A DNA stretch of 64,000 bases from Patescibacteria group bacterium (GTDB taxonomy: Bacteria; Patescibacteriota; Microgenomatia; UBA8517), in contig DASVCV010000002.1 in assembly GCA_036381415.1 (NCBI GenBank), positions 20,091-84,090 of the forward strand, read 5' to 3'. Every line of letters begins with the position of its first letter. The first letter of the stretch is position 1. The position numbers were made by a program, and so were the translations under genes. The notes beneath the pieces are model-generated. The model saw only the letters and a list, made by a program, of their open reading frames with translations, was not told the DNA's origin and did not search any database. Positions 21,453-61,714 of the stretch are shown one piece after another.

Positions 21453-22577
21453 TTAGAAAGCCCATTGGCCTTTGACAAAAAGAACGGAGAAATAAAGTAG
21501 AAGACAGGAAAAGATTAATACCAAAGGTATAAACACTATTTTTCTTTTTGAAATTAAAGCAAGAAATATAAACAAGGGAGGGATTGAAAGAAGGTATCTT
21601 GGAGTGCTTAAAAGAAAACTTGTTGAGGTAATAAAAAGGATAGAAAGAATATAATAGACCCAGTCTCTTACTTTTAATTTTTTAATTATGAAAGGAATAA
21701 GAGCAAAACATAGAATGGCAAGTCCCCCTTCAAAAAGACCAAGCATGAGTGAATCATGAGTCAGAGGTATTTTAAGAAATCCTAGACTGTTTTTTATACT
21801 AACCCATGGAAAATCAAGATGTTTGTACCAATGAGTTTCTAGAACTTCTTTAAAAGCAAAGATTTTACCAAACAATAACCAATTAACAGCAAGGTAAGTA
21901 GAAATAGAAATAATGAATGGAATTGTTATCAGAACTGAGAGAAGAATTTTTTTCTTTAAATTAATTTTTTCTAGTAGTAAAGAAACAAAAAGAGTGGGTA
22001 GTGTTATTAAGCCCATTGTTCTTGTTAAAAAGGTCAGTGCTCCCGAAAGAGAGGACTCATACCAATTTTTGTTTTGAGAAAAGAAGAAGCAGGATACTAA
22101 AAGGAAAAAGAATAATGATTCTGTATATCCAATTGAAAAAAAGTATGAAGTCGGAAAAATATTAAGAAGCACAAGAGATTTTAAGGCAGTTTGTTCATCG
22201 TAGTCTTTTTTTACAAGAAGGTAGAATACTAAACTTCCTAGAATGAAGAAGAAATTGGATACTAATAAAGCTGAAGTAAATACGTTTTTAATTAGCAAAT
22301 TAGCAAAGGTTACAATTGCAGGATATAGAGGTGGGAAAACTATGAAGTTTGCTTCATCTCCACTTGTTCCATACCAATGTTGGGTTATATATAAATAGTG
22401 AGGAGTGTCCCATCTGTTCCAGGTAGAGTCCAGAAGGATGGGTTTATGTGTTTGATAGCCAACTATTAAAAGGGGAAGAATAAGAATAACAATTCTTCCT
22501 AATCCTATTAGAAGAGCAATGGAGATAAGTTTATGTTTTTCTGACTGTAGTTTAAGCCTTTGCATTAAATGTCTCAT
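21453..22577 (-). CDS. Polytopic membrane protein, probable GT-C-type glycosyltransferase (DUF2029/GT87-like).
   Basis: 11+ TM helices with a conserved acidic/aromatic first loop (WNRWDTPHYLYI). The fold assignment is inferred. Confidence 0.45.
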   Translation of the reverse strand: MRHLMQRLKLQSEKHKLISIALLIGLGRIVILILPLLIVGYQTHKPILLDSTWNRWDTPHYLYITQHWYGTSGDEANFIVFPPLYPAIVTFANLLIKNVFTSALLVSNFFFILGSLVFYLLVKKDYDEQTALKSLVLLNIFPTSYFFSIGYTESLFFFLLVSCFFFSQNKNWYESSLSGALTFLTRTMGLITLPTLFVSLLLEKINLKKKILLSVLITIPFIISISTYLAVNWLLFGKIFAFKEVLETHWYKHLDFPWVSIKNSLGFLKIPLTHDSLMLGLFEGGLAILCFALIPFIIKKLKVRDWVYYILSILFITSTSFLLSTPRYLLSIPPLFIFLALISKRKIVFIPLVLIFSCLLLYFSVLFVKGQWAF

Positions 22578-25151
22578 GCTTTTATACTAAATTCTATGCT
22601 GGGGAAGAAATTTAAACAACTTATTATTCCCAAGAATCTCATTTTATCAGTTTTATTTGTACTTGGAGTAAGGCTTGCCTTTTCACTTCTTCCTAGTTTT
22701 CAGATAGATATGGGGACTTGGCTTGCATGGGCAGGAAGGCTTCGTGATTTAGGGTTTGATAAATTTTACTCTGACACTGTTTGGACTCAATATACTCCTG
22801 GATATTTGTATTGGCTTTGGGTTATGGGAAAGACAGGTATTATTTCAGAAGTTGCAATTAAACTACCAGTAATACTAGCTGATATTGGAGTGGGAGTAAT
22901 TATTTGGAATCTAGTCAGAAAGGTTGGCAAGAATACTGCACTTGCTGCATTTTTTGCATATACGCTTAATCCTGTTGTGATATTTAACGGATCAGTTTGG
23001 GGACAAATTGATGGGATATTTACTTTGTTTTTATTTTTGGCAGTTTATTTGATTAATGAGAAGAAAAGTGTTGTTTTGGGATGGAGTATGTGGGCAATTG
23101 CATTTTTAATAAAGCCGCAGGCTTTTGCTATTTTGCCTTTTCTAGTTCTAATAACTTTAAAGAAATATACTATTAAACAAATTCTAAAAGCAGGGATAGT
23201 TACCCTTCTTCTAATATTGGCACTTTCTATTCCATTTTTCCCAACCAATCCAATCTTTGGGTTACCAGATCTAATAAATAAAATGAGTCTTTACTATCCT
23301 TATACTTCTGTTTTTGCTTTTAATGTTTGGACTTTGGTTGGAATGTGGAAGGCAGACAGCACTACTTTTTTGGGAATACAGTATTTTTATATTGGAATTG
23401 GGATGTATGCTCTTTCACTGTTGTTTCTTTTTTGGAAATTTAGAAATAAATTGGATGAGCAAAAGATAGTTTATTTAGTTGTTGCACTTTCATGGATTGC
23501 TTTCTTTTTGTTTCCAACAAGAGTTCATGAAAGATATCTTTTCCCAGCATATGCATTTTTAATTACAGGATCAGCTCTTTCTAAATCAAAAGCATTATCT
23601 ATTTTTTATGTAGTACTTTCTTTTTTAAACTTTTTAAATTTATACCATCCATATGCCTACTATGCTCAGAATTATTTGGTTTCCAAATGGTTGCTTGATT
23701 TTACTGGGAGTGCTTCAGTTTCAATTGGAATTGGAACTTTCTTAATCTTTTTGGCAATTTCATTTAGCGAGAGATTTAAATTCTTGGAAAAAATAAATAT
23801 TTTCTCAAAGAAAAATAGACGTACAATAAAAAATGATTCTAAAGCGGGTAGATTAGGGAATATTTTTATGGGAGGTAAGGATTATGTATTGGGAATGAAA
23901 AATTTGGAAGTTAAGAAAGTAAATTTGCCTCATATTAAATTAACTAAAAAACAAATAAATATCCTTTTAGGAGTAGTAATTGCATTTTCTTTTGTAACAC
24001 GAGTATTTATGTTAGCTAATCCACCTCAGGAATATTTTGATGAGGTATATCATGCATTTACTGCAAGGCAAATGCTGCATGGAAATAAAATGGCTTGGGA
24101 GTGGTGGAACACACCCCCTGTTGGGTTTGCATATGAGTGGACACATCCACCTTTAGCTAAAGAAGGAATGGTTTTGGGAATGTTGGTATTTGGAGAAAAT
24201 CCATTTGGATGGAGAATACCTGGAGCACTTTTGGGGGTGGGAAGTGTAATACTTATCTACTTAATTGCCAGAAAACTTTTTGAGGATGATTTGGCAGGAG
24301 TACTTGCAGCAGGAGTATTTAGCTTAGATGGATTACCCCTTGTACTATCTAGGATTGGGATGAATGACAGCTACTTTTTATTTTTTGCGCTGACTTCAAT
24401 TTATTTTTACTTAGATAATAAAAATAGACTATTTAAAAATAGTAATAACTTTTTGGCTGCATTAACATTTGGGTTGTCCCTTGCTTCTAAATGGAGTGCT
24501 TTATGGGCCATTCCTATCTATGTTGCAATACATTTTCTTTTAAAGAGAAAATTAACTATCTCATATCTGTGGTTTTTGGTCTTACCTCCTTTAGTTTATG
24601 TTGCAACCTATATTCCCATGTTTATCAGCGGACATAATTTCTCAATATTTATTGAGATGCAAAAACAGATGTGGTGGTATCACACTAATTTGCGTGCCAC
24701 TCACCCGTACACATCTCCCTGGTGGAGCTGGCCATTTTTAGTCAGGCCAATCTGGCTTTATACAAGCGGAAGATTAGGAGACACTATTTCAAACATCTAT
24801 GCGATGGGGAATCCAGTTGTATTTTGGTTTGGATTAGGGGCAGTTGTTGTAACGGCAGTGAAAGGGTTAATGGAAAGGAGCAAGAAATTAATATTGGTTG
24901 CATTTGCATATTTAATTTTCTTTGTACCTTGGGCACTATCTCCAAGAATAATGTTTTTGTACCACTATCTTCCTTCAATTCCATTTTTGGCAATTGCAAC
25001 TGGGTATGTTTTAAGAAAGCATAAAGAACTCATTGCTCCTGTATTTATTGTAGGACTTGTTACTTTTATTTACTTTTACCCACATTTAATTGCAATGAAA
25101 GTTCCAGTTGTATTTGATTCTTCATACTATTGGTTTGATAGCTGGAGATAA
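22569..25151 (+). CDS. Fused 860-aa membrane glycosyltransferase. N-terminal GT-C/DUF2029-like half, C-terminal PMT (GT39) family protein O-mannosyltransferase-like half.
   Basis: The C-terminal half carries PPQEYFDEVYHAFTARQ (PMT DE motif) and a PMT_2-like distal region. 20+ TM helices overall. Overlaps the divergent GT-C gene start. Confidence 0.65.
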   Translation: MSHAFILNSMLGKKFKQLIIPKNLILSVLFVLGVRLAFSLLPSFQIDMGTWLAWAGRLRDLGFDKFYSDTVWTQYTPGYLYWLWVMGKTGIISEVAIKLPVILADIGVGVIIWNLVRKVGKNTALAAFFAYTLNPVVIFNGSVWGQIDGIFTLFLFLAVYLINEKKSVVLGWSMWAIAFLIKPQAFAILPFLVLITLKKYTIKQILKAGIVTLLLILALSIPFFPTNPIFGLPDLINKMSLYYPYTSVFAFNVWTLVGMWKADSTTFLGIQYFYIGIGMYALSLLFLFWKFRNKLDEQKIVYLVVALSWIAFFLFPTRVHERYLFPAYAFLITGSALSKSKALSIFYVVLSFLNFLNLYHPYAYYAQNYLVSKWLLDFTGSASVSIGIGTFLIFLAISFSERFKFLEKINIFSKKNRRTIKNDSKAGRLGNIFMGGKDYVLGMKNLEVKKVNLPHIKLTKKQINILLGVVIAFSFVTRVFMLANPPQEYFDEVYHAFTARQMLHGNKMAWEWWNTPPVGFAYEWTHPPLAKEGMVLGMLVFGENPFGWRIPGALLGVGSVILIYLIARKLFEDDLAGVLAAGVFSLDGLPLVLSRIGMNDSYFLFFALTSIYFYLDNKNRLFKNSNNFLAALTFGLSLASKWSALWAIPIYVAIHFLLKRKLTISYLWFLVLPPLVYVATYIPMFISGHNFSIFIEMQKQMWWYHTNLRATHPYTSPWWSWPFLVRPIWLYTSGRLGDTISNIYAMGNPVVFWFGLGAVVVTAVKGLMERSKKLILVAFAYLIFFVPWALSPRIMFLYHYLPSIPFLAIATGYVLRKHKELIAPVFIVGLVTFIYFYPHLIAMKVPVVFDSSYYWFDSWR

Positions 25152-25290
25152 TTACTTCTAGAGAGTAAAAGGGAATTAGGGTGGTGGCTTCAACCATTTT
25201 AGTTCTTTTAGTTTGGTAAATACTAAATTTATTGTTCTAGAGGTACAACACAAAATAATTAAGCAAGTCTAAGACTAGTTAATAGAAGTG

Positions 25291-26019
25291 TTAGAGAGCT
25301 AGTATTACTGCTCCTATTAGAAGGACTATACCTCCTGCAATTGCAAGCCAGGTTGGAGTTGATACTCCAGCTTGTGGAAGAGCAGGTGCAGGGGTTGCCA
25401 CTGTTGGTTTTGGTGTTGCAACTACAGTGGGAGTTGGGGTGGCAAGTGCGACAGGCGTAGGTGTTGGAGTTGCGCATACGCAAGTTGTGCTTGTAGTACA
25501 TGATGGGTTTCTACAAACACCTGTAGTTCCAGAAGTTATATAGCAGGTCATTCCAGACTGACAGTTTGCATCAGATCCGCAAGTTCCACCGCATGCATTG
25601 GGTACCCCTGGCGTTGCAGTAGGAGTTGGAGTTGCAGTCGGGGTTGGTGTTGCAGTTCCTGAGGGAGTAGGAGTTGGAGTTGCAGTTGCAGCAGTAATGG
25701 CAAAACTTGTTGTGCAGATACTTGAAGTGGCTGCACATGCACCATTTACGATGTTTTGTCCTGAAGGACAACAATAAACTGTTGAACCATTAGCTGGACT
25801 TATACAAGAAGTAGAGCCTGCAATGCTGGTTGCATTACAATTTAATCCTGCAGCACATTGTTCTGCTGCTCCAGGTTTACTGGTGGGTGCAGTTGGTGCA
25901 ACTGATTCTTGTCTTAACTGATATAGCCTTAAAGCAGTAAATACTGCAATTCCTGCAAGAATTACAGTTGCTCCTAGTATTAATATTGTTACTAAATTTT
26001 TCTTTACAAATGCTTGCAT
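25291..26019 (-). CDS. Cys-rich, Pro/Thr-linker-rich surface protein B2. N-terminal signal-anchor, C-terminal LPQAG sorting signal plus hydrophobic tail.
   Basis: N-terminus MQAFVKKNLVTILILGATVILAGIAVF. 22 Cys, (TPTP)n linkers, an 8-Cys module NACGGTCGSDANCQSGMTCYITSGTTGVCRNPSCTTSTTCVCA. C-terminus LPQAGVSTPTWLAIAGGIVLLIGAVILAL. Confidence 0.6.
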   Translation of the reverse strand: MQAFVKKNLVTILILGATVILAGIAVFTALRLYQLRQESVAPTAPTSKPGAAEQCAAGLNCNATSIAGSTSCISPANGSTVYCCPSGQNIVNGACAATSSICTTSFAITAATATPTPTPSGTATPTPTATPTPTATPGVPNACGGTCGSDANCQSGMTCYITSGTTGVCRNPSCTTSTTCVCATPTPTPVALATPTPTVVATPKPTVATPAPALPQAGVSTPTWLAIAGGIVLLIGAVILAL

Positions 26020-26023
26020 ATTA

Positions 26024-27520
26024 TTAGAACCATTGGTTTAGAACTTGATGATGTAATTGTCCTGAAACTGTGAAATTGGTGATATTTGTTGGTATTGTGT
26101 ATTCTTCATAGAAATCAGCACTGCTTGGACGCTTAGTGGCTACTTCAGGTTGCAAGGTTCCATTAATAGTGAATCTTGCTTTATCAAATACTCCAGAGGT
26201 TGTTGTACCTGTAAGTGTAAAGCGTATTTTATCTCCTGGTTTTAAAGCCGAAAGCTGAGTTGTGGTTAGAGGATTCCAGTTAGTGTCATAAATTTGTATT
26301 CCAGTGCATGTTGCGGTTGGAGTTGGACCACAGGCTTGTTGTACTTCAGCAGCGGTTGGGTTTGCTCCTGATGAGTTAAGAACATATGAGTTTCCTTGGT
26401 CACGAGCAACGCAGTTATTTGTTGTCCATCCAGTAGGAAGTGTGTCTGGGACGCAATATGTGGTGTTGTTTGTCCCTGTTCCTACTGTACAACTTGGTCC
26501 AACTATGTATCTACAAACTGAGCCTGTTTGACAAAGGCCAAGAGATGCACTGCATGGATTTCCACAGGCATTTAGGCTACTGCAGTCGCAGTTTCTTCCA
26601 GGAATGGTTTTTCCAATACAGCTTGCATTTTGACAGATCCCTGCAACGCATGTAACAGTTCCACCATTTCCTGCAGCAGCGCAGTCACTTGTTTGAGTAC
26701 ATGCCTGTCCACAGGTTGGTTTAGGAGTGGGAGTAGGTGCTGATCCACCTGCACAAGTTGAAGGATTCCAAACACATGCTCCTTGGGGATTTCTTTGACA
26801 TTCCGAGCCTCTTTCTCCTACACCTGCTTCAACACAAGAGCAGCTTCCGCAAGCTCCCCATCCTGGCTGGATTGTTGGAGCTGGGGCTGTTGAACTTGTT
26901 GGAGTAGGTGAAGGTGGGACATAACCGCTTGTGCTACATTGTCCAGATGTAGCTGCGGGACAACCAGACTGGCATCCACAAGAGCTGTTTTGGGATACAC
27001 AATTTACAGTTCCGTCAGAATTGTAGAAACAATTATCGCATTTGTTTGCATTGAATTTATCTCCACATCCAGCAAATCCTCCAGGAGTGTTGTTTGATGC
27101 TCCGCCACAGGCGTCAAGTCTAACACAAGGTCCGTAAGTGTTGTTTGCTTGGCATACTACTCCTGTTCCAGCTCCATTACATTCAATACAGGATTGTTCA
27201 CCTGGGTTAACACATGATGCTCCTGGTGCTGCGCCTCCACCAGCTGCCTTCTGTTTAAAAATTTGCTGTTGTTGAACTAGGAGTAGTCCTGCTCCAACTC
27301 CTACTACTAAGAGAACTAGTCCAAGAATGGTTGGAATGAGTGCCCTTCTTCTGGGTGACGGTGGGGCAAAGTCTGTTTGTGGTGGAGTTGTAATGTTAGT
27401 GTCAGCTGGTCCTCCTGCACCTGTTTCAGGAGGAGTTTCTGTTGGAAAAGTTGGATTTGTCCCTGGGTCACTTGGCGCGATTGTGTTGGTGGAATTTTGA
27501 GGGCTGGTATTATCTTGCAT
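26024..27520 (-). CDS. Large Cys-rich surface protein A2. N-terminal Pro/Thr-rich segment plus signal-anchor, about 45 Cys, and a conserved C-terminal beta-rich domain.
   Basis: PRRRALIPTILGLVLLVVGVGAGLLLV anchor. Many CxC / CxxC disulfide-type spacings. The C-terminal IYDTNWNPLTTTQLSALKPGDKIRFTLTGTTTSGVFDKARFTINGT domain is shared with the 28342..30033 ORF. Confidence 0.6.
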   Translation of the reverse strand: MQDNTSPQNSTNTIAPSDPGTNPTFPTETPPETGAGGPADTNITTPPQTDFAPPSPRRRALIPTILGLVLLVVGVGAGLLLVQQQQIFKQKAAGGGAAPGASCVNPGEQSCIECNGAGTGVVCQANNTYGPCVRLDACGGASNNTPGGFAGCGDKFNANKCDNCFYNSDGTVNCVSQNSSCGCQSGCPAATSGQCSTSGYVPPSPTPTSSTAPAPTIQPGWGACGSCSCVEAGVGERGSECQRNPQGACVWNPSTCAGGSAPTPTPKPTCGQACTQTSDCAAAGNGGTVTCVAGICQNASCIGKTIPGRNCDCSSLNACGNPCSASLGLCQTGSVCRYIVGPSCTVGTGTNNTTYCVPDTLPTGWTTNNCVARDQGNSYVLNSSGANPTAAEVQQACGPTPTATCTGIQIYDTNWNPLTTTQLSALKPGDKIRFTLTGTTTSGVFDKARFTINGTLQPEVATKRPSSADFYEEYTIPTNITNFTVSGQLHHQVLNQWF

Positions 27521-27597
27521 TTAATTTTTTATGAATATGAAGCTAGTCATTTCTAGCCCTATACCCATCATAGAAAGAGCTAGAGCTGGTGTCAAGT
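27521..27597 (-). pseudogene. Remnant copy of the 3' end (sorting-signal-encoding tail) of the 30045..31382 gene. It marks the junction of the tandem duplication.
   Basis: Translates to ...LTPALALSMMGIGLEMTSFIFIKN*, cf. ...DLTPTLALSMMGIGLVVTSFILWKKLEI* at the true gene end. About 70 nt of DNA are near-identical to 30069..30130. Confidence 0.55.
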
Positions 27598-27615
27598 AAA
27601 TTGTTTGTAAATTCT

Positions 27616-28332
27616 TTAGAGAGCAAGTATTACTGCTCCTATTAGAAGGACTATACCTCCTGCAATTGCAAGCCAGGTTGGAGTTGATACTCCAGCTTGG
27701 GGAAGAGCAGGTGCAGGGGTTGCAACTGTTGGTGTAGGAGTTGCAACTGCAATAGGTGTAGGAGTTGGGGTTGGTGTTGCACATACGCAAGTTGTGCTTG
27801 TAGTACATGATGGGTTTCTACATACTCCTGTAGTTCCAGAAGTTATATAACAGGTCATTCCAGATTGACAGTTTGCATCAGATCCGCAAGTTCCATTACA
27901 TGCATTTGGTGCTCCAGGTGTTGGAGTAGGAGTGGGTGTAGGAGTTGGAGTTGGTGTAGGTGTAGCTGTTGCACAAACACAGTTTGAGTTTGATGCACAG
28001 GATGGATTTACACAGATGTTGTTTCCAGATACTGTTTGGCAAGTTAGACCAGTTGGACAATTTGATTGACCACCTGGAGTAGTACAAGCTTCATAGCATT
28101 GAGGTACTGGTGTAGGAGTAGGAGTTGGTGTTTCAGCAGTAAGTGTAAAGGACAGTGCTTGGCAAGCAGGGTTTACTTGAGCACCTGGATTACTAGTAGG
28201 AGCAGCAGGAGAAACAGACTCTTGTCTTAACTGATATAGCCTTAAAGCAGTAAATACTGCAATTCCAGCAAGTATTACAGTTGCTCCTAGTATTAATATT
28301 GTTACTAAATTTTTCTTTACAAATGCTTGCAT
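27616..28332 (-). CDS. Cys-rich, Pro/Thr-linker-rich surface protein B1 (paralog of B2). Two copies of the 8-Cys module and an LPQAG sorting signal.
   Basis: N-terminal 40 aa and C-terminal about 95 aa are identical or near-identical to B2. The first domain is replaced by a second 8-Cys module (CYEACTTPGGQSNCPTGLTCQTVSGNNICVNPSCASNSNCVCA). Confidence 0.6.
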   Translation of the reverse strand: MQAFVKKNLVTILILGATVILAGIAVFTALRLYQLRQESVSPAAPTSNPGAQVNPACQALSFTLTAETPTPTPTPVPQCYEACTTPGGQSNCPTGLTCQTVSGNNICVNPSCASNSNCVCATATPTPTPTPTPTPTPTPGAPNACNGTCGSDANCQSGMTCYITSGTTGVCRNPSCTTSTTCVCATPTPTPTPIAVATPTPTVATPAPALPQAGVSTPTWLAIAGGIVLLIGAVILAL

Positions 28333-28341
28333 ATTATTTTT

Positions 28342-30033
28342 TTAATTCCATGTATTTAACGCTGCATGGTGAATTTGTGCTGTTACTGTGAAACTTGTTA
28401 CACCTACTGGAATTGTGTACTCATCATAGAACTCTTGAGTTGCTGCTGGTTTGGTTGTTGTTACTTCTGGTCTTAAGGTTCCATTAATAGTAAATCTTGC
28501 TTTATCAAATACTCCAGATGTGGTTGTTCCAGTTACAGTAAATCTAACCTTGTCTCCTGCTTTAAGAGCTGATAATTGAGTGGTTGTAAGCAGATTCCAG
28601 TTTGTGTCATATGCTTTTACAGCCTGACATTGTGCAGTGGAAGGAGCGGTTGATCCAGGAGGGTTGGTTGGTGTTGTTCCTCCACCAGTAGTTGGAGTAG
28701 TTGGTGCTTCAATGGTGCCAGCTGGTGCGGCGCAGGACTGGCGGTCGGCATCGTATGAACAAGATATGGTTCCATTGTTGCAGAAGCAGTCGTAATTGCT
28801 TGGTTGGTTGTAATGGTCACCGCAACCTGCAAATCCTCCACTGCCGACTGTGCGGCCATCATATACTCTACATGTGTTGCCAGTAGTTGGGGGAGTGCTC
28901 CCATTACAAGTGTGTGTTGTTTCGTTACAATCACCGCTTAAACAACTTGTGTCGTATATACAAGTTGCTCCGTCTGGCCTGTTGCCGATCTCACCGCAGC
29001 GGTCTGTACGGATACAATCCCATTGACCAAGAGCGTTACAGTATGCTTGTTGAGTTGGACCTGCGCCTCCTGCTGGTTCTCCGTTTGCACCACTACAGTC
29101 TCCGCAAGCTTTTCTGTCTCCTGTGGTACATACTCTTCCTGTAGCATTTGAATAACCTCCGCAGGCTATTAATGTACCAGCGTTGCCGTAGCAGACTTTC
29201 TGTCCGGATTTAACTGTTCCTGCAATACAGGTAATACAATGAAGTGGACTTGAGCAGTTTGCATCTGAGGTACAAGTATCGCCTTCCCCACCTGTTGTTG
29301 TGCCTCCTGGAGTTGTACCTCCGCCGCTGGTGGTTGCAGTTGGACAGCTTTCACCTGCTGGACAACATCTACCTAGATAGCTTCCATTAGATTGTTGACA
29401 ACCTGCACCTGGATATACATAAGTCCATCCTGTAGCTGGGCATTGTCCACGATCAGAACCACTTGATCCAGTACACCAAGCACCTGCAGGAGCCGTTGGT
29501 TGAGTTCCTCCACTACTTGGTTGAGAACACATGCCAAGAGTGTTGCTGCATCCAACTGCAGATCCTCCACCACCTGAACAGTTCCAGTTGTAGTTTCCAG
29601 GACATTCTCCTCTATTACCTACTCTACAATCTCCAGTACACCAGCCGCCTGCTCTTTGATTTAGAAGCTGTTGTCTTTGAGTAAGTGCTAATCCTGCTCC
29701 AACTCCTACTACTAAAAGAACTAATCCAAGAATTGTTGGAATGAGTGCCCTTCTTCTTGGTGAAGGAGGGGCAAAGTCTGTTTGTGGCGGGGTTGAAATT
29801 CCAGAATCAGGTGGAACTCCTCCTCCATTGCCTGTATCTTGTGGTGTTTCTGTTGGGAAGGTTGGACTTGTATCTGCTGGTTGAGTGGTAGTTGTGGTTG
29901 TTGTTTCTGTAACTGTTACAGGTGGTACAGATAATGGCTGGTCTGTAAGAGTTGGTGGAGTACTCGTACTTTGATCAGTAGGAAATGTAGGATTAGTAGA
30001 AGTATTTTGTTGATTTAGAGTACTATCTTGCAT
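28342..30033 (-). CDS. Large Cys-rich surface protein A1 (paralog of A2).
   Basis: Same N-terminal anchor (PRRRALIPTILGLVLLVVGVGAGLAL) and C-terminal domain as A2. A different Cys-rich central region of about 50 Cys, and a longer poly-Thr N-terminal segment. Confidence 0.6.
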   Translation of the reverse strand: MQDSTLNQQNTSTNPTFPTDQSTSTPPTLTDQPLSVPPVTVTETTTTTTTQPADTSPTFPTETPQDTGNGGGVPPDSGISTPPQTDFAPPSPRRRALIPTILGLVLLVVGVGAGLALTQRQQLLNQRAGGWCTGDCRVGNRGECPGNYNWNCSGGGGSAVGCSNTLGMCSQPSSGGTQPTAPAGAWCTGSSGSDRGQCPATGWTYVYPGAGCQQSNGSYLGRCCPAGESCPTATTSGGGTTPGGTTTGGEGDTCTSDANCSSPLHCITCIAGTVKSGQKVCYGNAGTLIACGGYSNATGRVCTTGDRKACGDCSGANGEPAGGAGPTQQAYCNALGQWDCIRTDRCGEIGNRPDGATCIYDTSCLSGDCNETTHTCNGSTPPTTGNTCRVYDGRTVGSGGFAGCGDHYNQPSNYDCFCNNGTISCSYDADRQSCAAPAGTIEAPTTPTTGGGTTPTNPPGSTAPSTAQCQAVKAYDTNWNLLTTTQLSALKAGDKVRFTVTGTTTSGVFDKARFTINGTLRPEVTTTKPAATQEFYDEYTIPVGVTSFTVTAQIHHAALNTWN

Positions 30034-30044
30034 CTTTTATTTTT

Positions 30045-31382
30045 TTATATTTCTAACTTTTTCCAAAGTATGAAGCTAGTCACTACTAGCCCTATACCCA
30101 TCATAGAAAGAGCTAGAGTAGGAGTCAAGTCACCAGACACTGGAATGGCACTCCCCGTGGCTGGAAGAGTAATTCTTGTTGTCCCAGATGTTGTTGAAAC
30201 AGGGGTTGGAGTTGGTGTTGGAATGGGAGTGGGTGTTGGAATAGGTGTAGCAGAACCAGATGCAACAAAAGCTGGTCCTTCAGAAGCTTGAACAACAAAT
30301 GTTTTTGTTAAGGTTTGCAGAATTCCTTGGGCGTCTGTCCAGGAAACTGAAAGAGTGTGAGTTCCTGGATCTAGATTTGCAGGTGGATTCCAGGTCCAGG
30401 TTCCATCAGCAGCAGCTGTAACTGTTGCCGTTTGGGGAGTGGACCTGACAGTAATAGTAATTTTTGTATTAGGAGTGGCAGTTCCCATGATTTGAGGTTT
30501 AGCAGTGGAAATTATTTCGCCATCTTTGATACTTGTAACGGTTACAGTTTTTGTTGTTCCTGAGGTTGTAGCAGTATTTCCTAAGTTAAAACCTGCTGAT
30601 GAAGTTGCTGTGTCAGGCAAATTAAGATTTGATTGAGGATTTCCTCCTTCGGTGTTACCAGGATTACTTCTAAAATCATATGTTTGTCCAAGTTTGATAA
30701 CAGGAGTTGGGTTGGCTGATTTAGGATAGATTTGAGCAGTTGAGACTCCACTTACTCCACCTTGAACAAAAATTTGAAGAAGAGTGGAGTCTGGGGAAAT
30801 AGTTGCATAACTTGTGAGATCTGGTTTAAGTGCAGTGCTAATTGGAATTACCCAATTACCGTTAGCTGAAGTTAAGGCAGACATTGGGTTAAATCCAGTT
30901 CCATTTACATAGACCAGAACTTCTGGAGCTGGAAGGCCACCTGCATCTTCAACTGTTCCTGATATCAAGATCTGAGTAGGAAGAGTGGATGTTGTTTGTG
31001 AGGCAGTTTGGGTGTTCCAAGGGATTCCTGAGTTGTCATAATCAGAGCCAGCTGAATTAATTTTAAAATAGTAGGGAGTTGATGGACTTAAGGTAGTTAC
31101 TTGGACCCAATGAATGGTGGTAGCAGTTTGGGAAGCAAGTGTTGTCTGGCTTAAACTGTCTTGACTTACCCCATATTTGACATATCCAACGGTTGGTTTG
31201 TCAGTAATCCAAGAAATTGCAAAAGAAGAGGAAGATTGGTTTGTTATTCTTACATCTTGGGGTGCAACATCAGGAGAAGCACCAAGCTTAAATTGCTTGG
31301 ATGTTGCAACAAGAAAAATACCTGCTCCCATACCAAGTACAAGAACTAGTATTCCTATTAGTGTTGGGATTTTCCCTCTCAT
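30045..31382 (-). CDS. LPXTG-anchored multi-domain surface protein (Fn3-like, CarboxypepD_reg-like and Ig-like domains, PT-rich stalk).
   Basis: N-terminal signal MRGKIPTLIGILVLVLGMGAGIFLV. Fn3-like region SFAISWITDKPTVGYVKYG...YYFKINSAG. Ig-like region DGTWTWNPPANLDPGTHTLSVSWTD. (PTPTPIPTPTPTP) stalk. C-terminal LPATG plus hydrophobic segment plus KKLEI, a canonical sortase signal. Confidence 0.65.
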   Translation of the reverse strand: MRGKIPTLIGILVLVLGMGAGIFLVATSKQFKLGASPDVAPQDVRITNQSSSSFAISWITDKPTVGYVKYGVSQDSLSQTTLASQTATTIHWVQVTTLSPSTPYYFKINSAGSDYDNSGIPWNTQTASQTTSTLPTQILISGTVEDAGGLPAPEVLVYVNGTGFNPMSALTSANGNWVIPISTALKPDLTSYATISPDSTLLQIFVQGGVSGVSTAQIYPKSANPTPVIKLGQTYDFRSNPGNTEGGNPQSNLNLPDTATSSAGFNLGNTATTSGTTKTVTVTSIKDGEIISTAKPQIMGTATPNTKITITVRSTPQTATVTAAADGTWTWNPPANLDPGTHTLSVSWTDAQGILQTLTKTFVVQASEGPAFVASGSATPIPTPTPIPTPTPTPVSTTSGTTRITLPATGSAIPVSGDLTPTLALSMMGIGLVVTSFILWKKLEI

Positions 31383-31717
31383 GGCGTGGTTCCTCCTGGA
31401 GTTGCTGACTGACTGGCAATTGGAGTTGCTGACTCACTTGCAACGGGTGTTGCAACAGGTGTTGGGGTAGGAAGAGTGGATGCAGTAACGGTATTATTTC
31501 CGATCTGGTCATCACTAAGGTACATTCTTTGTTGTAATTTATTTAGAGCAGCTACGTCAAGAGTGGGATTTAAGGGTGCAACAATTTCAGCAGGTACTGG
31601 GGGAGAAGGCTTTATAGTTAGGGTTCTATAAACCTCAAAAGCAATCCAGAAAAAGATTGTGATTAGGGTAATTATTGCAAGAGTTACTCCTGCTGGTGTT
31701 TTTATTCCTCTTTTCAT
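31379..31717 (-). CDS. Membrane-anchored Pro/Thr-rich protein co-transcribed with pilN/pilO. Possible pilus-associated component.
   Basis: 112 aa: N-terminal TM (MKRGIKTPAGVTLAIITLITIFFWIAF), then a PT/ATP-rich low-complexity tail. ATGA start/stop overlaps with both neighbouring genes. Confidence 0.45.
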   Translation of the reverse strand: MKRGIKTPAGVTLAIITLITIFFWIAFEVYRTLTIKPSPPVPAEIVAPLNPTLDVAALNKLQQRMYLSDDQIGNNTVTASTLPTPTPVATPVASESATPIASQSATPGGTTP

Positions 31718-32379
31718 TTTGTTTGGGCTGTTTGAGCTTCCTGGTAAGGGGCTCTTCCTTCTATGGTTAGATATAAATTTTTAACATTATCAATTTCTGT
31801 TGCAGTAAAATTTAGACTGTCAAAGACAAGAGGACGTCTTAAAAGTTCAATATCTGCAAGGAATGTTGAGATGGTGTTGTAGTCGCCTGCTACTGAAATA
31901 GATACTCCAACCCCTGAACTTCCTTGCGGAAGAGTTTTTCTTTGATCAGGGGGACCTGCAAGAACAGGGGAAGTCCCTGCAAGAGTTATTTGTTCACTTC
32001 CTATGTTTTGAGTAACAACATTATCTTTTTTAATTACTCCTTCAATTTGGCGGATGTATTGACCAAGAGATGGAGATGTGGGAACTGCATCAGAAAGAAG
32101 AGCAATATTTGCCTGTTGGGATGCAAGAATACTCTGAGCTTGCTGAAGGTTTAGGATTTTAGCATCCATTTGTTCTATGGTTTTTTGCTTTTCATTAATT
32201 TCTGTTAAGAGGTTAGAGATGGTAAGGGCAGTTGGCTTAATGGCAAAGATTGAAAAAAGGCCAATAGTAACTATGGAAAGTAGAAGCTCAAGAAAGGCTT
32301 TTAAGTCTGGCCTTCTTTTGTAAAGAGCCATTAAGTTAAATAGATACTGTTGTCCTCTAAAGTAGCTTTTAGGTCCCAT
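31714..32379 (-). CDS. pilO: Type IV pilus assembly protein PilO.
   Basis: Basic N-terminus plus one TM and a coiled coil. C-terminal ISVAGDYNTISTFLADIELLRRPLVFDSLNF is similar to the PilO core. Start uncertain: 32379 or 32331, while the ORF track gives 32484. Confidence 0.65.
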   Translation of the reverse strand: MGPKSYFRGQQYLFNLMALYKRRPDLKAFLELLLSIVTIGLFSIFAIKPTALTISNLLTEINEKQKTIEQMDAKILNLQQAQSILASQQANIALLSDAVPTSPSLGQYIRQIEGVIKKDNVVTQNIGSEQITLAGTSPVLAGPPDQRKTLPQGSSGVGVSISVAGDYNTISTFLADIELLRRPLVFDSLNFTATEIDNVKNLYLTIEGRAPYQEAQTAQTK

Positions 32380-32953
32380 TTGGTTTAGGCGTAGCTGCCA
32401 CTCCTTTCTGTGTAGCAAGAACTTGGAAAGTGATATTGCCTGTTGTTTGGTCAATTGTGGTTTGAGTAAGAGATACTTTATCAAACATATTTGGGATTGC
32501 TTTTAAGTTTGCAATAAATGTACCTGCTCCAACTTCTGAGGTGGAAGTTGCTCTAATTTCAACTGCAGATGCATCTACTGAAAGAAATGTTATTTGGACA
32601 GTATCAGGAAGAGCAGTTGTTAGGGTTTGAAGAAGAGGAATGTATTTGCTTTTGTCATATGCAACAGAAGAGAAAATGGCTAACTCTTTTTGAGCTTCTC
32701 TAAAGTTCTTTTCAACTTGGGCATATGAGGTAATAACTGCCTTTTTTTGATTTATAGCTTCTGTTAGGTCGCTTACTTTGGAGTCAAGCCAGAATCTAGA
32801 GAGAAATGCTCCCATTACGACCATTTCAGTTGCAATGACAATGAGCCTAAATGAAGAAATAAGCCATCTAAAAATTCTTCCTAGAGTGGATGATTCGAAC
32901 TCTTCTTGTGGAAGAAGATTGATCCTTGGTTCTTTAGTGTTGCGGGCAGCCAT
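32369..32953 (-). CDS. pilN: Type IV pilus assembly protein PilN.
   Basis: The hallmark N-terminal INLLP motif (PRINLLPQEE), a single TM, a coiled coil and a C-terminal ALPDTVQITFLSVDASAVEIRATS region. Confidence 0.75.
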   Translation of the reverse strand: MAARNTKEPRINLLPQEEFESSTLGRIFRWLISSFRLIVIATEMVVMGAFLSRFWLDSKVSDLTEAINQKKAVITSYAQVEKNFREAQKELAIFSSVAYDKSKYIPLLQTLTTALPDTVQITFLSVDASAVEIRATSTSEVGAGTFIANLKAIPNMFDKVSLTQTTIDQTTGNITFQVLATQKGVAATPKPNGT

Positions 32954-33019
32954 ACAATTAGAGCCAATGACTATTCAATGGCTACTTCAATATAACATAA
33001 CCGTGAGGTTCACAAAAGA

Positions 33020-33313
33020 TTATTTTTTGGAAGCTTTTTTAGAAGATTTTTTGGGAGCAGCTTTTTTAACTGGCTTAACTGGTTTTGCTAATTTAGAAAG
33101 AGCTGATTTAATTCTTGCTGCTTTATTCTTATGGATTACTTTCTTTTTTGCAGCACGATCTGCAAGAGAAGATGCTTTTTTAATACTTACCTGGCTTTTA
33201 GTTTTCTTTGCTAGTCGTATTGCAGCATCCAAATCCTTTATAATAATTGTGTTAACAGATGCTTTCTGGGCTGACCCTCTTAAAGCTCTTTTGGCTGTTT
33301 TAGTTACAGGCAT
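33020..33313 (-). CDS. rpsT: 30S ribosomal protein S20 with a Lys-rich C-terminal extension.
   Basis: MPVTKTAKRALRGSAQKA...IHKNKAARIKSALSKL matches the S20 signature. Start taken at Met-14 of the listed ORF. Confidence 0.8.
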   Translation of the reverse strand: MPVTKTAKRALRGSAQKASVNTIIIKDLDAAIRLAKKTKSQVSIKKASSLADRAAKKKVIHKNKAARIKSALSKLAKPVKPVKKAAPKKSSKKASKK

Positions 33314-33363
33314 GCCTGAAGTATAATTCAAAATGCTCGTAATTTCAATCAAACACTAAAAAG

Positions 33364-58784: not shown

Positions 58785-61031
58785 ATGGAAGAACATTTTT
58801 GGTCTTTAGCTCTTGAAACCGGCTGGGTGCAGGCGGCTATTTGGACGATTAAAGAAAAAGAAGCACATGTTGTTGCAGTTTCAAATGCAGTTGCTTGGGA
58901 AAGTGATGAAGACTTACTTAGTGCCTGTGACACAGTTCTTTCTTCCATAGTTTCAGGACTAGCTGAAAATGCAAAGGAACCTTCTAAGACTGTATTTGGT
59001 GTTCCACCTGGATGGGTAGGAGAAGGGCAAATTAAAAAAGAATATTTAGATAGAATTAGAAATATATGCCACAAATTATCTCTTGAACCTTCTGGGTTTG
59101 TAGTACTGCCTGAAGCTATTGCTCATTTCAAAAAATCTGAAGAGAATGCACCTGTTTCTGGAGTAATTGTTGGAGTAGGAACAGATGCATTAGATATTAC
59201 TGTTGTTAGACTTGGAACAATTATTGGAACAGTTAATGTGGGAAGAAGTTTGTCTGTTTTAGATGATGTTGTTGAAGGAATTGCAAGGTTTGGGGGGGCA
59301 GAGCCATTTCCTTCAAGATTTTTAATATATGATGGGAAGAGTGCTGAATTGGAAGATGTAAGGCAGGAACTTATAAAAGCGGATTGGACAGGTGAGCTTA
59401 AAACAAAAGCTAAGTTTCTTCATACTCCACAGGTGGAAATAGTTGATCCAAAAATGAAAATGGTTGCAGTGAGTCTAGCTGGAGCTAGTGAAATAGGGCA
59501 GGCAAATGTGGTTACTTTTGATTTGGGAGAAGAAAAGGCTGAAAAACTAAAAGAGGAAAAGCCAGAAATAAAAGTAGAACAACCTAAAGAGGATTTGAGT
59601 TCTCATGAGAATTTGAGTGAGGTGGCAAAAGCTACTGATTTTGGTTTTGTAATGGATCAAGATATAAATGAAGTTGCAGGTGCAACAAATCCTAACCCAG
59701 TTCAGACTTCAGCCAATACTCCTAGTTTTGTAACTTCTCCTCATCCAGTTTCTAACCCTTTTCCTCGTAATCCAATTAGTAAAATCAAGCATAATATAGT
59801 AAGGTTACCTTTGATTTTAAGCGGAGCTTGGCCGCTTTCAGCGGTGAAAGGAAAAATGGATCAAAGAAATAAAATTAGCATGCCTGGTGGAGAAGCTAGA
59901 AAGAAAATGCCTATTATTTTGGCAATAGCTGGGGCAGCTCTTTTGATATTTGGATTTATTGGATGGTGGTTTTTACCAAAAGCTGAAGTGACTATTTTTG
60001 TTTCTCCAAAAAAGATTGAACAAAAGCAGCTTATAACATACGATCCAAAACTTACTGATCCTGATATTTCAAAAAGACAACTTCCTATTTCAACTGTTTC
60101 CACTTCAGTAAGTGGAGATAAGACAAAATCTACAACTGGGACTTTAACTATTGGGGATAGGGCAAAGGGATCAGTTGTTATTAGAAATGGAGGATCAGAT
60201 GATATTGGTCTTACAGCTGGAACAATTTTAACAGGACCAAATAGTCTTAAATTTAGTCTTGATAATGGAGCTTCTGTTTCTGCTGCAACATCCCCATCAA
60301 ATCCTGGAACTGCAACAATTTCTGTAACAGCTTCTGGGATTGGAGCAGAATACAATTTGGCTAAGGGAGAAACACTTCAGGTGGGGAATTTTTCAAAAAG
60401 CCAGGTGGATGCTTTAGTGGATTCAGATTTTTCAGGTGGGTCAAGCCAGGAAGTGGTTGCAGTTTCCAAAGATGATTTATCAGTTTTGCAGAAAGATTTA
60501 ACTAGTGAATTGACTGAAAAAGCTCAAAACCAATTAAAGGAAAAACTTGGGGATGATGAGATACTGCTTGATCCTGCTACGATTGCAACAGCTTCTGGAA
60601 TAACTTATGATCATGTTGCAGGGGATCAGGCTTCAACACTTAAACTTAGTGAGAACTTAAGCCTTACCAGTTATGTAGTTTCAAAAAAGAATTTAGGGAA
60701 TTTGGCTAGGGATATTGTAAAAGGACAGGTGCCTAATGGGTTTGTTGTTAAGGATGATCAGATAAGTACTAATTTTGATACAAAATTGGGATTAGTTGAT
60801 GGAGTGTGGAAGCTAGATACTACATTTAATGTTAATTTGTTACCACAGATTAATACTGATGATATTGCTAAAAAAATTGCAGGCAAATCTCAAAAAGCAG
60901 CGCAAGAAATATTATCTAGGATAGCAGGTTATGTGAGAGCTGAGATACACCTGACAAAAGGTTTTCCCAGCTTTGGTACTTTACCTCATGTTGTTAAAAA
61001 TATTTCTGTTGAGTTGTCCTCAGAAAAATGA
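58785..61031 (+). CDS. Bitopic protein: N-terminal actin-like (ASKHA, PilM/GspL-cytoplasmic-domain-like, degenerate) domain, one TM, and a about 340-aa extracytoplasmic Thr/Ser-rich beta domain.
   Basis: SLALETGWVQA and VIVGVGTDALDITVVRLGTIIG resemble the phosphate-1 and phosphate-2 regions of the actin fold with substitutions. TM at about aa 385-405. ATGA overlap with the sortase gene. Confidence 0.45.
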   Translation: MEEHFWSLALETGWVQAAIWTIKEKEAHVVAVSNAVAWESDEDLLSACDTVLSSIVSGLAENAKEPSKTVFGVPPGWVGEGQIKKEYLDRIRNICHKLSLEPSGFVVLPEAIAHFKKSEENAPVSGVIVGVGTDALDITVVRLGTIIGTVNVGRSLSVLDDVVEGIARFGGAEPFPSRFLIYDGKSAELEDVRQELIKADWTGELKTKAKFLHTPQVEIVDPKMKMVAVSLAGASEIGQANVVTFDLGEEKAEKLKEEKPEIKVEQPKEDLSSHENLSEVAKATDFGFVMDQDINEVAGATNPNPVQTSANTPSFVTSPHPVSNPFPRNPISKIKHNIVRLPLILSGAWPLSAVKGKMDQRNKISMPGGEARKKMPIILAIAGAALLIFGFIGWWFLPKAEVTIFVSPKKIEQKQLITYDPKLTDPDISKRQLPISTVSTSVSGDKTKSTTGTLTIGDRAKGSVVIRNGGSDDIGLTAGTILTGPNSLKFSLDNGASVSAATSPSNPGTATISVTASGIGAEYNLAKGETLQVGNFSKSQVDALVDSDFSGGSSQEVVAVSKDDLSVLQKDLTSELTEKAQNQLKEKLGDDEILLDPATIATASGITYDHVAGDQASTLKLSENLSLTSYVVSKKNLGNLARDIVKGQVPNGFVVKDDQISTNFDTKLGLVDGVWKLDTTFNVNLLPQINTDDIAKKIAGKSQKAAQEILSRIAGYVRAEIHLTKGFPSFGTLPHVVKNISVELSSEK

Positions 61032-61714
61032 GAAGTAGTTTCTTCGTAAAAATACTAGCTATTGCTTGTGGAATAGGTGGAGTTGGAATTTTGGCTTGGG
61101 TTTTTTTACCAATCTTTTTTTATGAGTTTACTGCACCACCACTAATGTCTTATCTATCTCCACTTCCTGATAACACTCAAGCTGCAAATAGTACTAACGG
61201 AAGCTTTGATGATACTAAGGCAAGCAACTGGTTTGTGGGATCTAATCCATCTGATTTTAAAAAAGGAAGTGTTACTTTTTATAACTTATCAATTCCGAGA
61301 TTAGGAATTTCTGATGCTGTAGTTGCAGTTGGAGGAGAGGATTTATCACAATCTTTAATTCAATATCCTGGAACTGCCTTACCAGGCAGACCTGGGAATG
61401 CTACAATTTTTGGACATTCGGTACTTCCTCAGTTTTATAGTGCTACAAACTATCTAACTATTTTTTCAGACTTACCTAGCTTACAAAAGGGAGATGGAAT
61501 AAGTATAAGATCTGATGGAATAAGTTATGAATATAGAGTGGAGGAAAAATTTGAAGTACTACCTACTGATGTGCAAGTGCTAGAGCAAAATTTAAGTGAT
61601 TCATTTTTAACTTTGGTTACTTGTGTTCCACCTGGAGATCCAAGACGTCCAAGAAGGCTTATAATAAGGGCAAGGATTGTTCCTTTGCAAAATACAAATA
61701 CGGGACAGAATTAA
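61028..61714 (+). CDS. Sortase (transpeptidase) family protein.
   Basis: N-terminal TM. TIFGHSV (catalytic His), LTLVTCVPPG (TLxTC catalytic Cys) and a downstream Arg-rich region (DPRRPRR). Confidence 0.8.
   Translation: MRSSFFVKILAIACGIGGVGILAWVFLPIFFYEFTAPPLMSYLSPLPDNTQAANSTNGSFDDTKASNWFVGSNPSDFKKGSVTFYNLSIPRLGISDAVVAVGGEDLSQSLIQYPGTALPGRPGNATIFGHSVLPQFYSATNYLTIFSDLPSLQKGDGISIRSDGISYEYRVEEKFEVLPTDVQVLEQNLSDSFLTLVTCVPPGDPRRPRRLIIRARIVPLQNTNTGQN

Follow-up and report, generated by a model that had tools for sequence, protein, structure and literature searches.

We analyzed a stretch of 64,000 nucleotides from contig DASVCV010000002.1 of a Patescibacteria group bacterium. (We will call this 64-kb stretch the window; all coordinates are positions within it.) Its minus strand carries two pairs of genes for cysteine-rich proteins, A1 and B1 followed by A2 and B2. 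The B proteins contain a short stretch with eight cysteines, which a sequence-only reading had proposed to be a new repeated module, flanked by Thr/Pro linkers, in an architecture like that of a carbohydrate-binding module (CBM). Our analysis confirmed that the 8-Cys stretch is a real and previously unnamed mini-domain. The features of the B genes, together with the module in A2, are as follows.

27616..28332, minus strand: gene B1, 238 amino acids (aa) with 17 Cys; an N-terminal transmembrane (TM) helix, a lone Cys, two 8-Cys modules, Thr-Pro (TP) linkers, and LPQAG with a C-terminal helix
28162..28164, minus strand: Cys57 of B1, the lone and family-invariant Cys, at the start of the strand motif C-Q-A-L-S-F-T-L
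27973..28098, minus strand: module 1 of B1 (residues 79-120, CYEACTTPGGQSNCPTGLTCQTVSGNNICVNPSCASNSNCVC), of the variable type II flavor; 43.6 bits to the module profile
27901..27972, minus strand: linker ATATPTPTPTPTPTPTPTPGAPNA between the two module copies of B1, from the translation and a repeat scan
27781..27900, minus strand: module 2 of B1 (residues 145-184, CNGTCGSDANCQSGMTCYITSGTTGVCRNPSCTTSTTCVC), of the conserved type I flavor, with a rare long x10 hairpin; 60.7 bits to the module profile
27619..27705, minus strand: C-terminal sorting-type signal of B1, with LPQAG, VSTPT, a hydrophobic helix, and no charged tail
25291..26019, minus strand: gene B2, 242 aa with 15 Cys; a paralogue of B1
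25735..25857, minus strand: 6-Cys unit of B2 with CCPSG (residues 55-95), in place of module 1 of B1
25714..25716, minus strand: Cys102 of B2, the lone Cys, in ICTTSFAITAA
25474..25593, minus strand: type I module of B2 (residues 143-182); 60.3 bits to the module profile
26582..26713, minus strand: divergent but full 8-Cys module of A2 (residues 270-313); 14.2 bits, over profile positions 1-41

Using a regular expression and the translations, we found two copies of the module in B1 and one in B2, as the sequence-only reading had it, and (TP)n linkers do lie around them. The spacing in these copies is C-x3-C-x5(8)-C-x5-C-x4..10-C-x4-C-x5-C-x-C. The 8-Cys pattern that had been described therefore stands, but the module is 40-42 aa long from Cys to Cys, not about 43 aa, and the second gap of B1 module 1 is x8 instead of x5. 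The linker ATATPTPTPTPTPTPTPTPGAPNA is a 6-nucleotide tandem array at the DNA level, and we count its C-terminal PN-x with the type I signature described below. The B2 module and B1 module 2 are one residue apart and are otherwise identical. These type I copies of the two paralogues are under purifying selection (6 synonymous and 2 non-synonymous changes, dN/dS ~0.09). The A2 copy had been considered degenerate. It is there, and it is divergent yet full: A2 residues 266-314 align to the whole module profile with all eight Cys in register, although the score is weak (14.2 bits). A1 has only a partial match to the core of the profile (residues 251-281).

Chance or low complexity is ruled out as the source of the 8-Cys pattern, since none of 20,000 shuffles of B1 reproduced the strict spacing. 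Similarly, homologues and conserved gene order rule out mis-called open reading frames (ORFs).

To describe the module, we aligned 97 copies that came from other genomes and built a profile from them. These diverse copies all keep the eight Cys, and at least 90% of them have Arg32. A search of 1.84 billion cluster representatives with this profile (a hidden Markov model) found 1943 proteins at E ≤ 1e-3, of which 288 also pass a cutoff of 1e-10. The 1943 protein clusters are mostly from Patescibacteria, so the module is not confined to one genome. Most of the full-length matches have a helix at the N-terminus and an [LIV]PxxG-plus-helix signal at the C-terminus, and one is from a Kerfeldbacteria metagenome-assembled genome (MAG). 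A second class of matches contains only the inner core, many times over; these are bacterial DUF7107/Dickkopf_N repeat proteins. Searching with B1 itself gave at least 339 relatives at E ≤ 1e-3, all of which are unannotated and, where named, from Patescibacteria. Among the 120 best of these relatives, the spacing C-x3-C-x5-C-x5-C-x4..10-C-x4-C-x5-C-x-C is essentially fixed across 176 copies.

The module is also new as a family, as had been suggested: neither Pfam nor NCBIfam has a family for it, and no entry in Pfam, NCBIfam, or the PDB spans all of it. In the literature on the candidate phyla radiation (CPR), on sortases, on cysteine-rich proteins, and on O-mannosylation, we found nothing on the 8-Cys module or on the operon that encodes it.

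AlphaFold2 predicts a defined fold from the module alignment (pLDDT 89, pTM 0.66), with a beta-hairpin at residues 20-33, across the fourth and fifth cysteines. When we compared this model to the PDB and BFVD with Foldseek, there were no matches with E < 0.001. The best PDB neighbor was the Dkk-type cysteine-rich domain of Draxin (5z5k_B; TMq 0.59, rmsd 1.4 Å over 38 columns, prob 0.99), which is not significant (E = 0.11). It was followed by inhibitor cystine knot (ICK) toxins, Dkk1, and EETI-II. The neighbors from BFVD were EGF-like proteins of giant viruses.

By sequence, in a profile search of the PDB, the best match was the DPY module of Dumpy (1oig, E = 0.001), with tCtsnsdCpsgltC..vCRnp aligned to ECVLNSDCPSNQACVNQKCRDP. 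Next came scytovirin (E = 0.005), and then the squash and carboxypeptidase inhibitors, which are knottins. Among the 97 copies, 44 have sub-threshold hits to Dumpy_DPY in Pfam (best E = 4e-6), 27 touch WAP, and 22 touch DUF7107. The gathering threshold of Dumpy_DPY (PF21164) is 27 bits, and only one of the homologues passes it (P0019, at 27.3 bits). The matches to WAP (PF00095), with a best E of 3.7e-4, score too low for that family's threshold, and the module has no CC pair like the central one of WAP.

DPY has the spacing Cx5Cx5Cx4C with two disulfides, and it resembles CREMP modules, whose connectivity is 1-3, 2-4 (PMC12723725). The inner four Cys of our module are spaced as C-x5-C-x5-C-x4-C in 99 of 176 copies, and the flanking residues agree as well (NSDCPS..C....CR[DN]P). 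Also, both occur as beads in long extracellular proteins, whether Thr/Pro-rich or modular fibers. But DPY has 4 Cys in ~21-24 residues, while the module has 8 Cys in 40-42 residues, with C-x3-C added in front and C-x5-C-x-C behind. The copies in the window have x10 instead of x4 in the last of these inner gaps, and B1 module 1 also has x8 in the first. The settings differ as well, with an insect matrix protein of alternating DPY and EGF modules in one case and a bacterial TP stalk in the other.

The module profile also matches multi-repeat bacterial lipoproteins of the DUF7107/Dickkopf_N type, such as P0147, but their repeats cover only profile positions ~6-30 and lack the outer four Cys, the CRNPSC...C-x-C tail, and the TP linkers. 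The knottins (EETI-II, MCoTI, the carboxypeptidase inhibitor, and the toxins of spiders and cone snails) are similar in size, in their two-disulfide beta-hairpin, and in the motif CxxxxDC..G.C. However, knottins have 6 Cys with an adjacent IV-V pair, while the module has 8 Cys and none at the IV position. The disulfides of a knottin connect I-IV, II-V, and III-VI, and the third one threads the ring; for the module, the resemblance comes from neighbors in fold and sequence at E = 0.02-10.

In our reading, the module belongs to a known kind of fold, the disulfide hairpin of DPY, knottins, and Dkk, here extended to eight cysteines. Because of the DPY-type sequence matches and the disulfide pattern of DPY and CREMP, we read the inner cysteines C2-C5 (C-x5-C-x5-C-x4..10-C) as a disulfide-directed beta-hairpin, in which C2 would pair with C4 and C3 with C5. 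The outer cysteines (C1, C6, C7, and C8) would then form two more disulfides that clasp both ends of the module.

The likeness to knottins raises the question of whether the module is an inhibitor like those of the knottin or WAP kind, tethered at the surface to shield the cell or its pili from proteases of the host or the environment. Besides the profile matches to the squash trypsin inhibitors and the potato carboxypeptidase inhibitor in the PDB (E between 0.02 and 0.1), Pfam models of inhibitors touch some of the copies (WAP in 27 of 97, CarbpepA_inh in 16, and Squash in 8), and EETI-II superposes at 0.9 Å over 26 columns. However, all of these matches are below the thresholds of their families, and they cover only the generic C-x5-C-x5-C-x4-C core. 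We see no conserved reactive-site loop; except in type I, the loops that determine specificity in inhibitors are the most variable parts of the module. The number of modules also varies from 0 to 4 among orthologues. We consider this explanation very unlikely.

The module copies fall into two types. Type I has the signature PN-x-C-[GN]-G-T-C-G-S-[ND]-x-N-C-..-L-x-C-Y-x-G-[FY]-C-R-N-P-S-C. Conservation is 96-100% at its N, G, T, G, S, N, G, R, and N positions, and three positions in the hairpin are aromatic in 51-81% of copies. Type II copies are variable outside of the cysteines. The last module, which is closest to the C-terminal anchor, is type I in 76 of 120 proteins; at other positions, only 4 of 56 copies are type I. 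The type I modules in the window, which are module 2 of B1 and the one module of B2, have the rare long hairpin and only one of the aromatics.

This conserved subtype might be taken to support a role in binding. In that explanation, which is close to the idea of the sequence-only reading, the module is a small domain that binds carbohydrates or the host surface (like a CBM, hevein, or scytovirin), it is held out by a glycosylated stalk, and binding is its main function. Scytovirin, the second-best sequence match in the PDB, is a cyanobacterial lectin, and structures of CBM1 appear among the Foldseek neighbors, at ranks 3 and 17. The near-invariant Asn, Ser, Thr, and Arg of type I, together with its hairpin aromatics, are what a sugar-binding face is usually made of, and some relatives of B have VWA or DUF11 domains, which are of the adhesin type. 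But the CBM1 structures match at E = 2 and E = 7, with an rmsd of 4.2 Å, so the resemblance to CBM1 that had been noted is not significant; the nearest matches in sequence are DPY, scytovirin, and the knottins. The signature of aromatic and polar residues is missing from the type II copies, and the conserved copy adjoins the wall anchor instead of the distal tip of the stalk. As discussed below, the module is also missing from some orthologues.

The proposed analogy to a glycoside hydrolase joined by a linker to a CBM fails because there is no catalytic domain in A or B: neither Pfam nor NCBIfam identified a catalytic family in A1, A2, B1, or B2, and their homologues have at most DUF11, VWA, or Ig-like domains in Pfam. 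The module does share with CBM1 its small size, its disulfides, its place beside a Thr/Pro linker that is probably O-glycosylated, and a weak resemblance in fold. However, CBM1 (~36 aa) has 4 Cys and a planar triad of aromatics, and it is attached to a glycoside hydrolase. The module has 8 Cys, no enzyme, and no match to CBM_1 or any other CBM in Pfam; its aromatics are conserved only in the type I copies of other species, and the copies in the window have a single hairpin aromatic. Overall, we think that carbohydrate or host binding is unlikely to be the main function of the module.

In an alignment of B homologues, the N-terminal helix is highly conserved (..ILAG[IV]A[IV]FTA.RLYQLRQ..), and the segment P-x-x-P-x-S-x-P-x-A after it does not vary. 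Next come an invariant lone Cys on a short strand (C-x-L-x-F-T-L), TP linkers around 0-4 modules, and an end of the form L-P-x-[SA]-G-x-x-x-P-T plus a helix. Within the C-terminal signal, the L is at least 90% conserved across the family, and the P and G are invariant. In at least 13 species, the B orthologue consists of only the helix, the lone-Cys strand, the TP stalk, and the LPxxG signal; these orthologues have the stalk and its one Cys and no module at all. Other relatives of B have an Ig-like, DUF11, or VWA domain in place of the module or beside it. Apart from weak LPXTG-type matches on B, none of A1, A2, B1, or B2 has a family in Pfam or NCBIfam. We also considered whether the lone Cys of B might belong to a lipobox, and we rejected this: it lies ~25 residues past the helix, and the sequence that precedes it is no match to L-[AS]-[GA]-C.

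A second cysteine-rich unit, with 6 Cys (C-x5-C-x10-C-x10-CC-P-[SA]-G-x..-C), is common to B2 and to A-type proteins, and it has no match in Pfam. Examples are in P0154 (~154-195, TCGTGLNC...CISGGQTVYCCPSG...C), in B2 (QCAAGLNC...CISPANGSTVYCCPSG...C), and in A1 (residues 187-230).

The genes for A and B are part of a larger conserved neighborhood, whose other features are as follows.

28342..30033, minus strand: gene A1, 563 aa with 35 Cys
28345..28638, minus strand: C-terminal Ig-like domain of A1, with the lone Cys in AQCQAVKAYD
26024..27520, minus strand: gene A2, 498 aa with 37 Cys; a disordered N-terminus, a TM helix, a Cys-rich ectodomain, and a conserved C-terminal beta-sandwich
26027..26317, minus strand: C-terminal Ig-like domain of A2, which starts with the conserved lone Cys (TATCTGIQIYD)
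27521..27592, minus strand: remnant of the 3' end of U (TPALALSMMGIGLEMTSFIFIKN, then a stop), between B1 and A2
30045..31382, minus strand: gene U, a surface protein without Cys that has fn3/Big_13 domains and carries a canonical sortase signal (LPATG, helix, KK)
31379..31717, minus strand: gene X, a small bitopic protein of 112 aa that is conserved in the operon
31714..32484, minus strand: PilO-like protein (PF04350, 22 bits, at the cutoff)
32369..32953, minus strand: PilN-like protein (PF05137, E = 6e-7), with an INLLP motif
22569..25151, plus strand: GT-C enzyme of the protein O-mannosyltransferase (PMT) type, with PMT and PMT_4TMC in its C-terminal half and a PMT_2-like N-terminal half; convergent with B2
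61028..61714, plus strand: sortase (PF04203, E = 2e-24) with a TLVTC active-site motif; a candidate processor of the LPxxG signals

B is the last gene of the operon pilN-pilO-X-U-A-B. The gene order MurJ(-) / PilN PilO X U A B (+) / PMT(-) ... LytR(-), which occupies 21453-35055 in the window, is present at 75 loci (from the compared loci L002-L078), from species-level genomes that are titled Woesebacteria, Microgenomates, or Patescibacteria. This order is strictly conserved in ~70 Woesebacteria/Microgenomates genomes, where PilN keeps its INLLP motif and no pilM lies next to it. The six-gene operon seems to be undescribed in the literature that we searched.

B resembles the LPXTG proteins that are anchored by sortases in several ways. 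It has an LPxxG followed by a hydrophobic helix and preceded by a TP-rich region, the genome encodes a sortase, and the neighboring protein U has a canonical signal. (The window also encodes signal peptidase I, or SPase I.) But the fourth position of the B signal is [SA], not Thr, the charged tail is missing, and an unusually conserved N-terminal membrane helix takes the place of an ordinary signal peptide. B is a bitopic surface protein whose LPxxG signal is probably processed by the sortase of the genome.

B is convergent with a gene for a GT39-type O-mannosyltransferase in most of ~70 genomes. Actinobacterial enzymes of this type attach O-linked mannose to Thr in the Pro-rich segments of exported proteins. 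The conserved adjacency of the PMT gene therefore supports, by inference, O-glycosylation of the TP linkers, and the adjacent O-mannosyltransferase is probably responsible. The enzyme in the window has 860 aa, and its N-terminal half looks like a second GT-C/PMT_2 membrane domain that is fused to the GT39 half. There are further PMT_2-like genes at 21453-22577 and at 4334-5662.

Our preferred reading, which we hold with slightly more confidence than doubt, is that the module is a disulfide-locked node in the glycosylated stalk of B, and that the conserved type I is also a docking surface. The module would be an extracellular mini-domain of ~40 residues with four disulfides. Inserted 0-4 times in the Thr/Pro-rich stalk of B, it would be rigid and protease-resistant in a stalk that is otherwise extended. 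The type I copy, which lies nearest to the wall anchor, would provide the docking surface, for which the candidate ligands are a glycan and a partner protein; this conserved, wall-proximal subtype may bind something. At the two ends of this scheme, the sortase would process the LPxxG-plus-helix signal, and the adjacent O-mannosyltransferase would glycosylate the linkers. What the data show directly is the module and its conservation, how B is laid out, the gene order, and the parity of the cysteines; the pairing of the cysteines within the module, the action of the sortase, the O-glycosylation, and the part played as node or docking site are inferences.

Several observations weigh against this reading. 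As a pure spacer, the module would leave the strong conservation of type I outside of its cysteines unexplained, and as a docking surface, the type I copies in the window lack two of the three hairpin aromatics. The C-terminal signals of B1 and B2 score 14.0 bits, below the cutoff of TIGR01167 (15.9 bits), and have no charged tail. The connection between the PMT and the TP linkers is one of synteny alone. We saw no gene for Dsb or VKOR within the window. Finally, every structural match of the module from Foldseek has E > 0.1, the match to DPY is marginal, and the window's own copies of the module match nothing in Pfam.

Further evidence that the cysteines form disulfides comes from their parity. 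Of 40 complete A proteins, with 3 to 43 Cys, 39 have an odd count. For B, the count is odd at 65 of 70 loci; among 120 homologues from the database, it is odd in 119 and equals 8n+1 in 82. Among complete A-B pairs, both counts are odd in 44 of 46. The neighboring proteins U and X have no Cys. The lone cysteines of A and B also vary together. At two loci (L053 and L067), both A and B have gained a second Cys five residues upstream of the first (giving C-x4-C in each), and both counts are even. L066 has no A, and its B is free of Cys; at L030, no A was detected, and B has lost the lone Cys. Taken together, the parity and the co-variation argue for pairing of the ectodomain cysteines, which supports disulfides in the module.

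Parity also bears on another explanation, in which the cysteines would stay reduced to bind metal, in the manner of metallothioneins or of zinc or iron clusters, instead of forming disulfides. In its favor, the module packs eight Cys into 40 residues, anoxic groundwater is home to many Patescibacteria, and there are a few weak hits to Pfam models of zinc fingers and metallothioneins. But the odd counts in the ectodomain of A (39/40) fit better with obligate pairing plus one free Cys than with sites of 3 or 4 Cys. Also, the fold is confidently predicted by AlphaFold2, its nearest neighbors are all disulfide knots, and there are no conserved His, Asp, or Glu that could be co-ligands. We consider metal binding to be highly improbable. 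As primary roles for the module, then, a lectin or CBM, a protease inhibitor, and a metal-binding site are progressively less likely, in that order.

One other protein may connect the module to redox chemistry. A protein of 840 aa from a Kerfeldbacteria MAG (P0121) contains five 8-Cys modules, DUF4215 repeats, and a C-terminal AhpC/TSA domain, which has the thioredoxin fold. Through this architecture, the module may be linked to thiol-disulfide chemistry.

Because the lone cysteines of A and B co-vary, they are likely to be functionally coupled. The sequences suggest that this is most simply by an intermolecular A-S-S-B bond. The lone Cys of A lies at the start of its C-terminal domain, for which an Ig-like sandwich is predicted (pLDDT 88.7). 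This domain has no sequence match in the PDB, and Foldseek found only generic Ig-like neighbors, such as the fn3-like modules of CbhA, the carbohydrate-binding domain of Wzt, and RhoGDI, all with E > 0.02.

In A, the helix and the C-terminal domain are conserved while the Cys-rich ectodomain is hypervariable. The ectodomains of A1 and A2 cannot be aligned to each other, and half of the ectodomain of A from the closest relative (locus L078, 8422-9978) cannot be aligned to A1 or A2. This variability is a cassette-like pattern, which is typical of surfaces that are exposed for recognition or evasion.

More speculatively, A and B may form a covalent heterodimer via their lone cysteines, with the B strand C-x-L-x-F-T-L lying against the first strand of the Ig-like domain of A (C-x-x-[VI]-K-A-Y-D). 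B would then be a sortase-sorted, O-mannosylated, knot-studded stalk that is disulfide-coupled to the hypervariable A, in a previously undescribed surface organelle of the Microgenomates that is tied to PilN and PilO. We offer this larger picture tentatively, and it is rather less likely to be right than wrong.

The A-B pair is tandemly duplicated in the window, and the two copies are 78-86% identical at the DNA level over the conserved ends of the genes only. Only one A-B pair is present in the closest relative (L078), whose B and U are 83% and 84% identical, respectively, to those in the window. The spacer between B1 and A2 contains TPALALSMMGIGLEMTSFIFIKN, which is a decayed copy of the end of U itself (TPTLALSMMGIGLVVTSFILWKKLEI). 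Given this remnant, the two A-B pairs come from a tandem duplication of a unit that starts inside U, and we interpret 27521-27592 as the scar of the duplication of this [U tail-A-B] unit.

The GC content is 0.45 at 26000-30000, as compared to ~0.35 in the rest of the window, and this region coincides with the A and B genes, which are rich in Thr, Pro, Gly, and Cys. We considered horizontal transfer as the source of the rise in GC, and we dropped it because the operon is syntenic across the lineage. The rise looks like an effect of coding composition, not foreign DNA. Elsewhere in the window, the ORF at 9149-10222 has weak matches to LAGLIDADG homing endonucleases and to a helix-turn-helix (HTH); it is directly upstream of the MetRS gene (7783-9207) and overlaps it.

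The Patescibacteria, or CPR, are a large part of bacterial diversity, and those that have been cultivated are obligate episymbionts. To our knowledge, how CPR attach to their hosts is largely unknown. The 8-Cys module defines an unannotated family in about two thousand protein clusters, which is enough to seed a new model for Pfam or NCBIfam, and its scaffold of 40 residues and four disulfides may be of interest for engineering knottin-like binders. Within the Woesebacteria and Microgenomates, the module marks a strictly conserved six-gene envelope operon with an accompanying O-mannosyltransferase. The parity and the co-variation of the cysteines predict a disulfide-linked A-B pair, with exactly one free Cys on each partner, which bears on how the surface of CPR is built. 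If A and B do form a heterodimer, then the ectodomain of A could be the element by which these episymbionts recognize their host or substrate.

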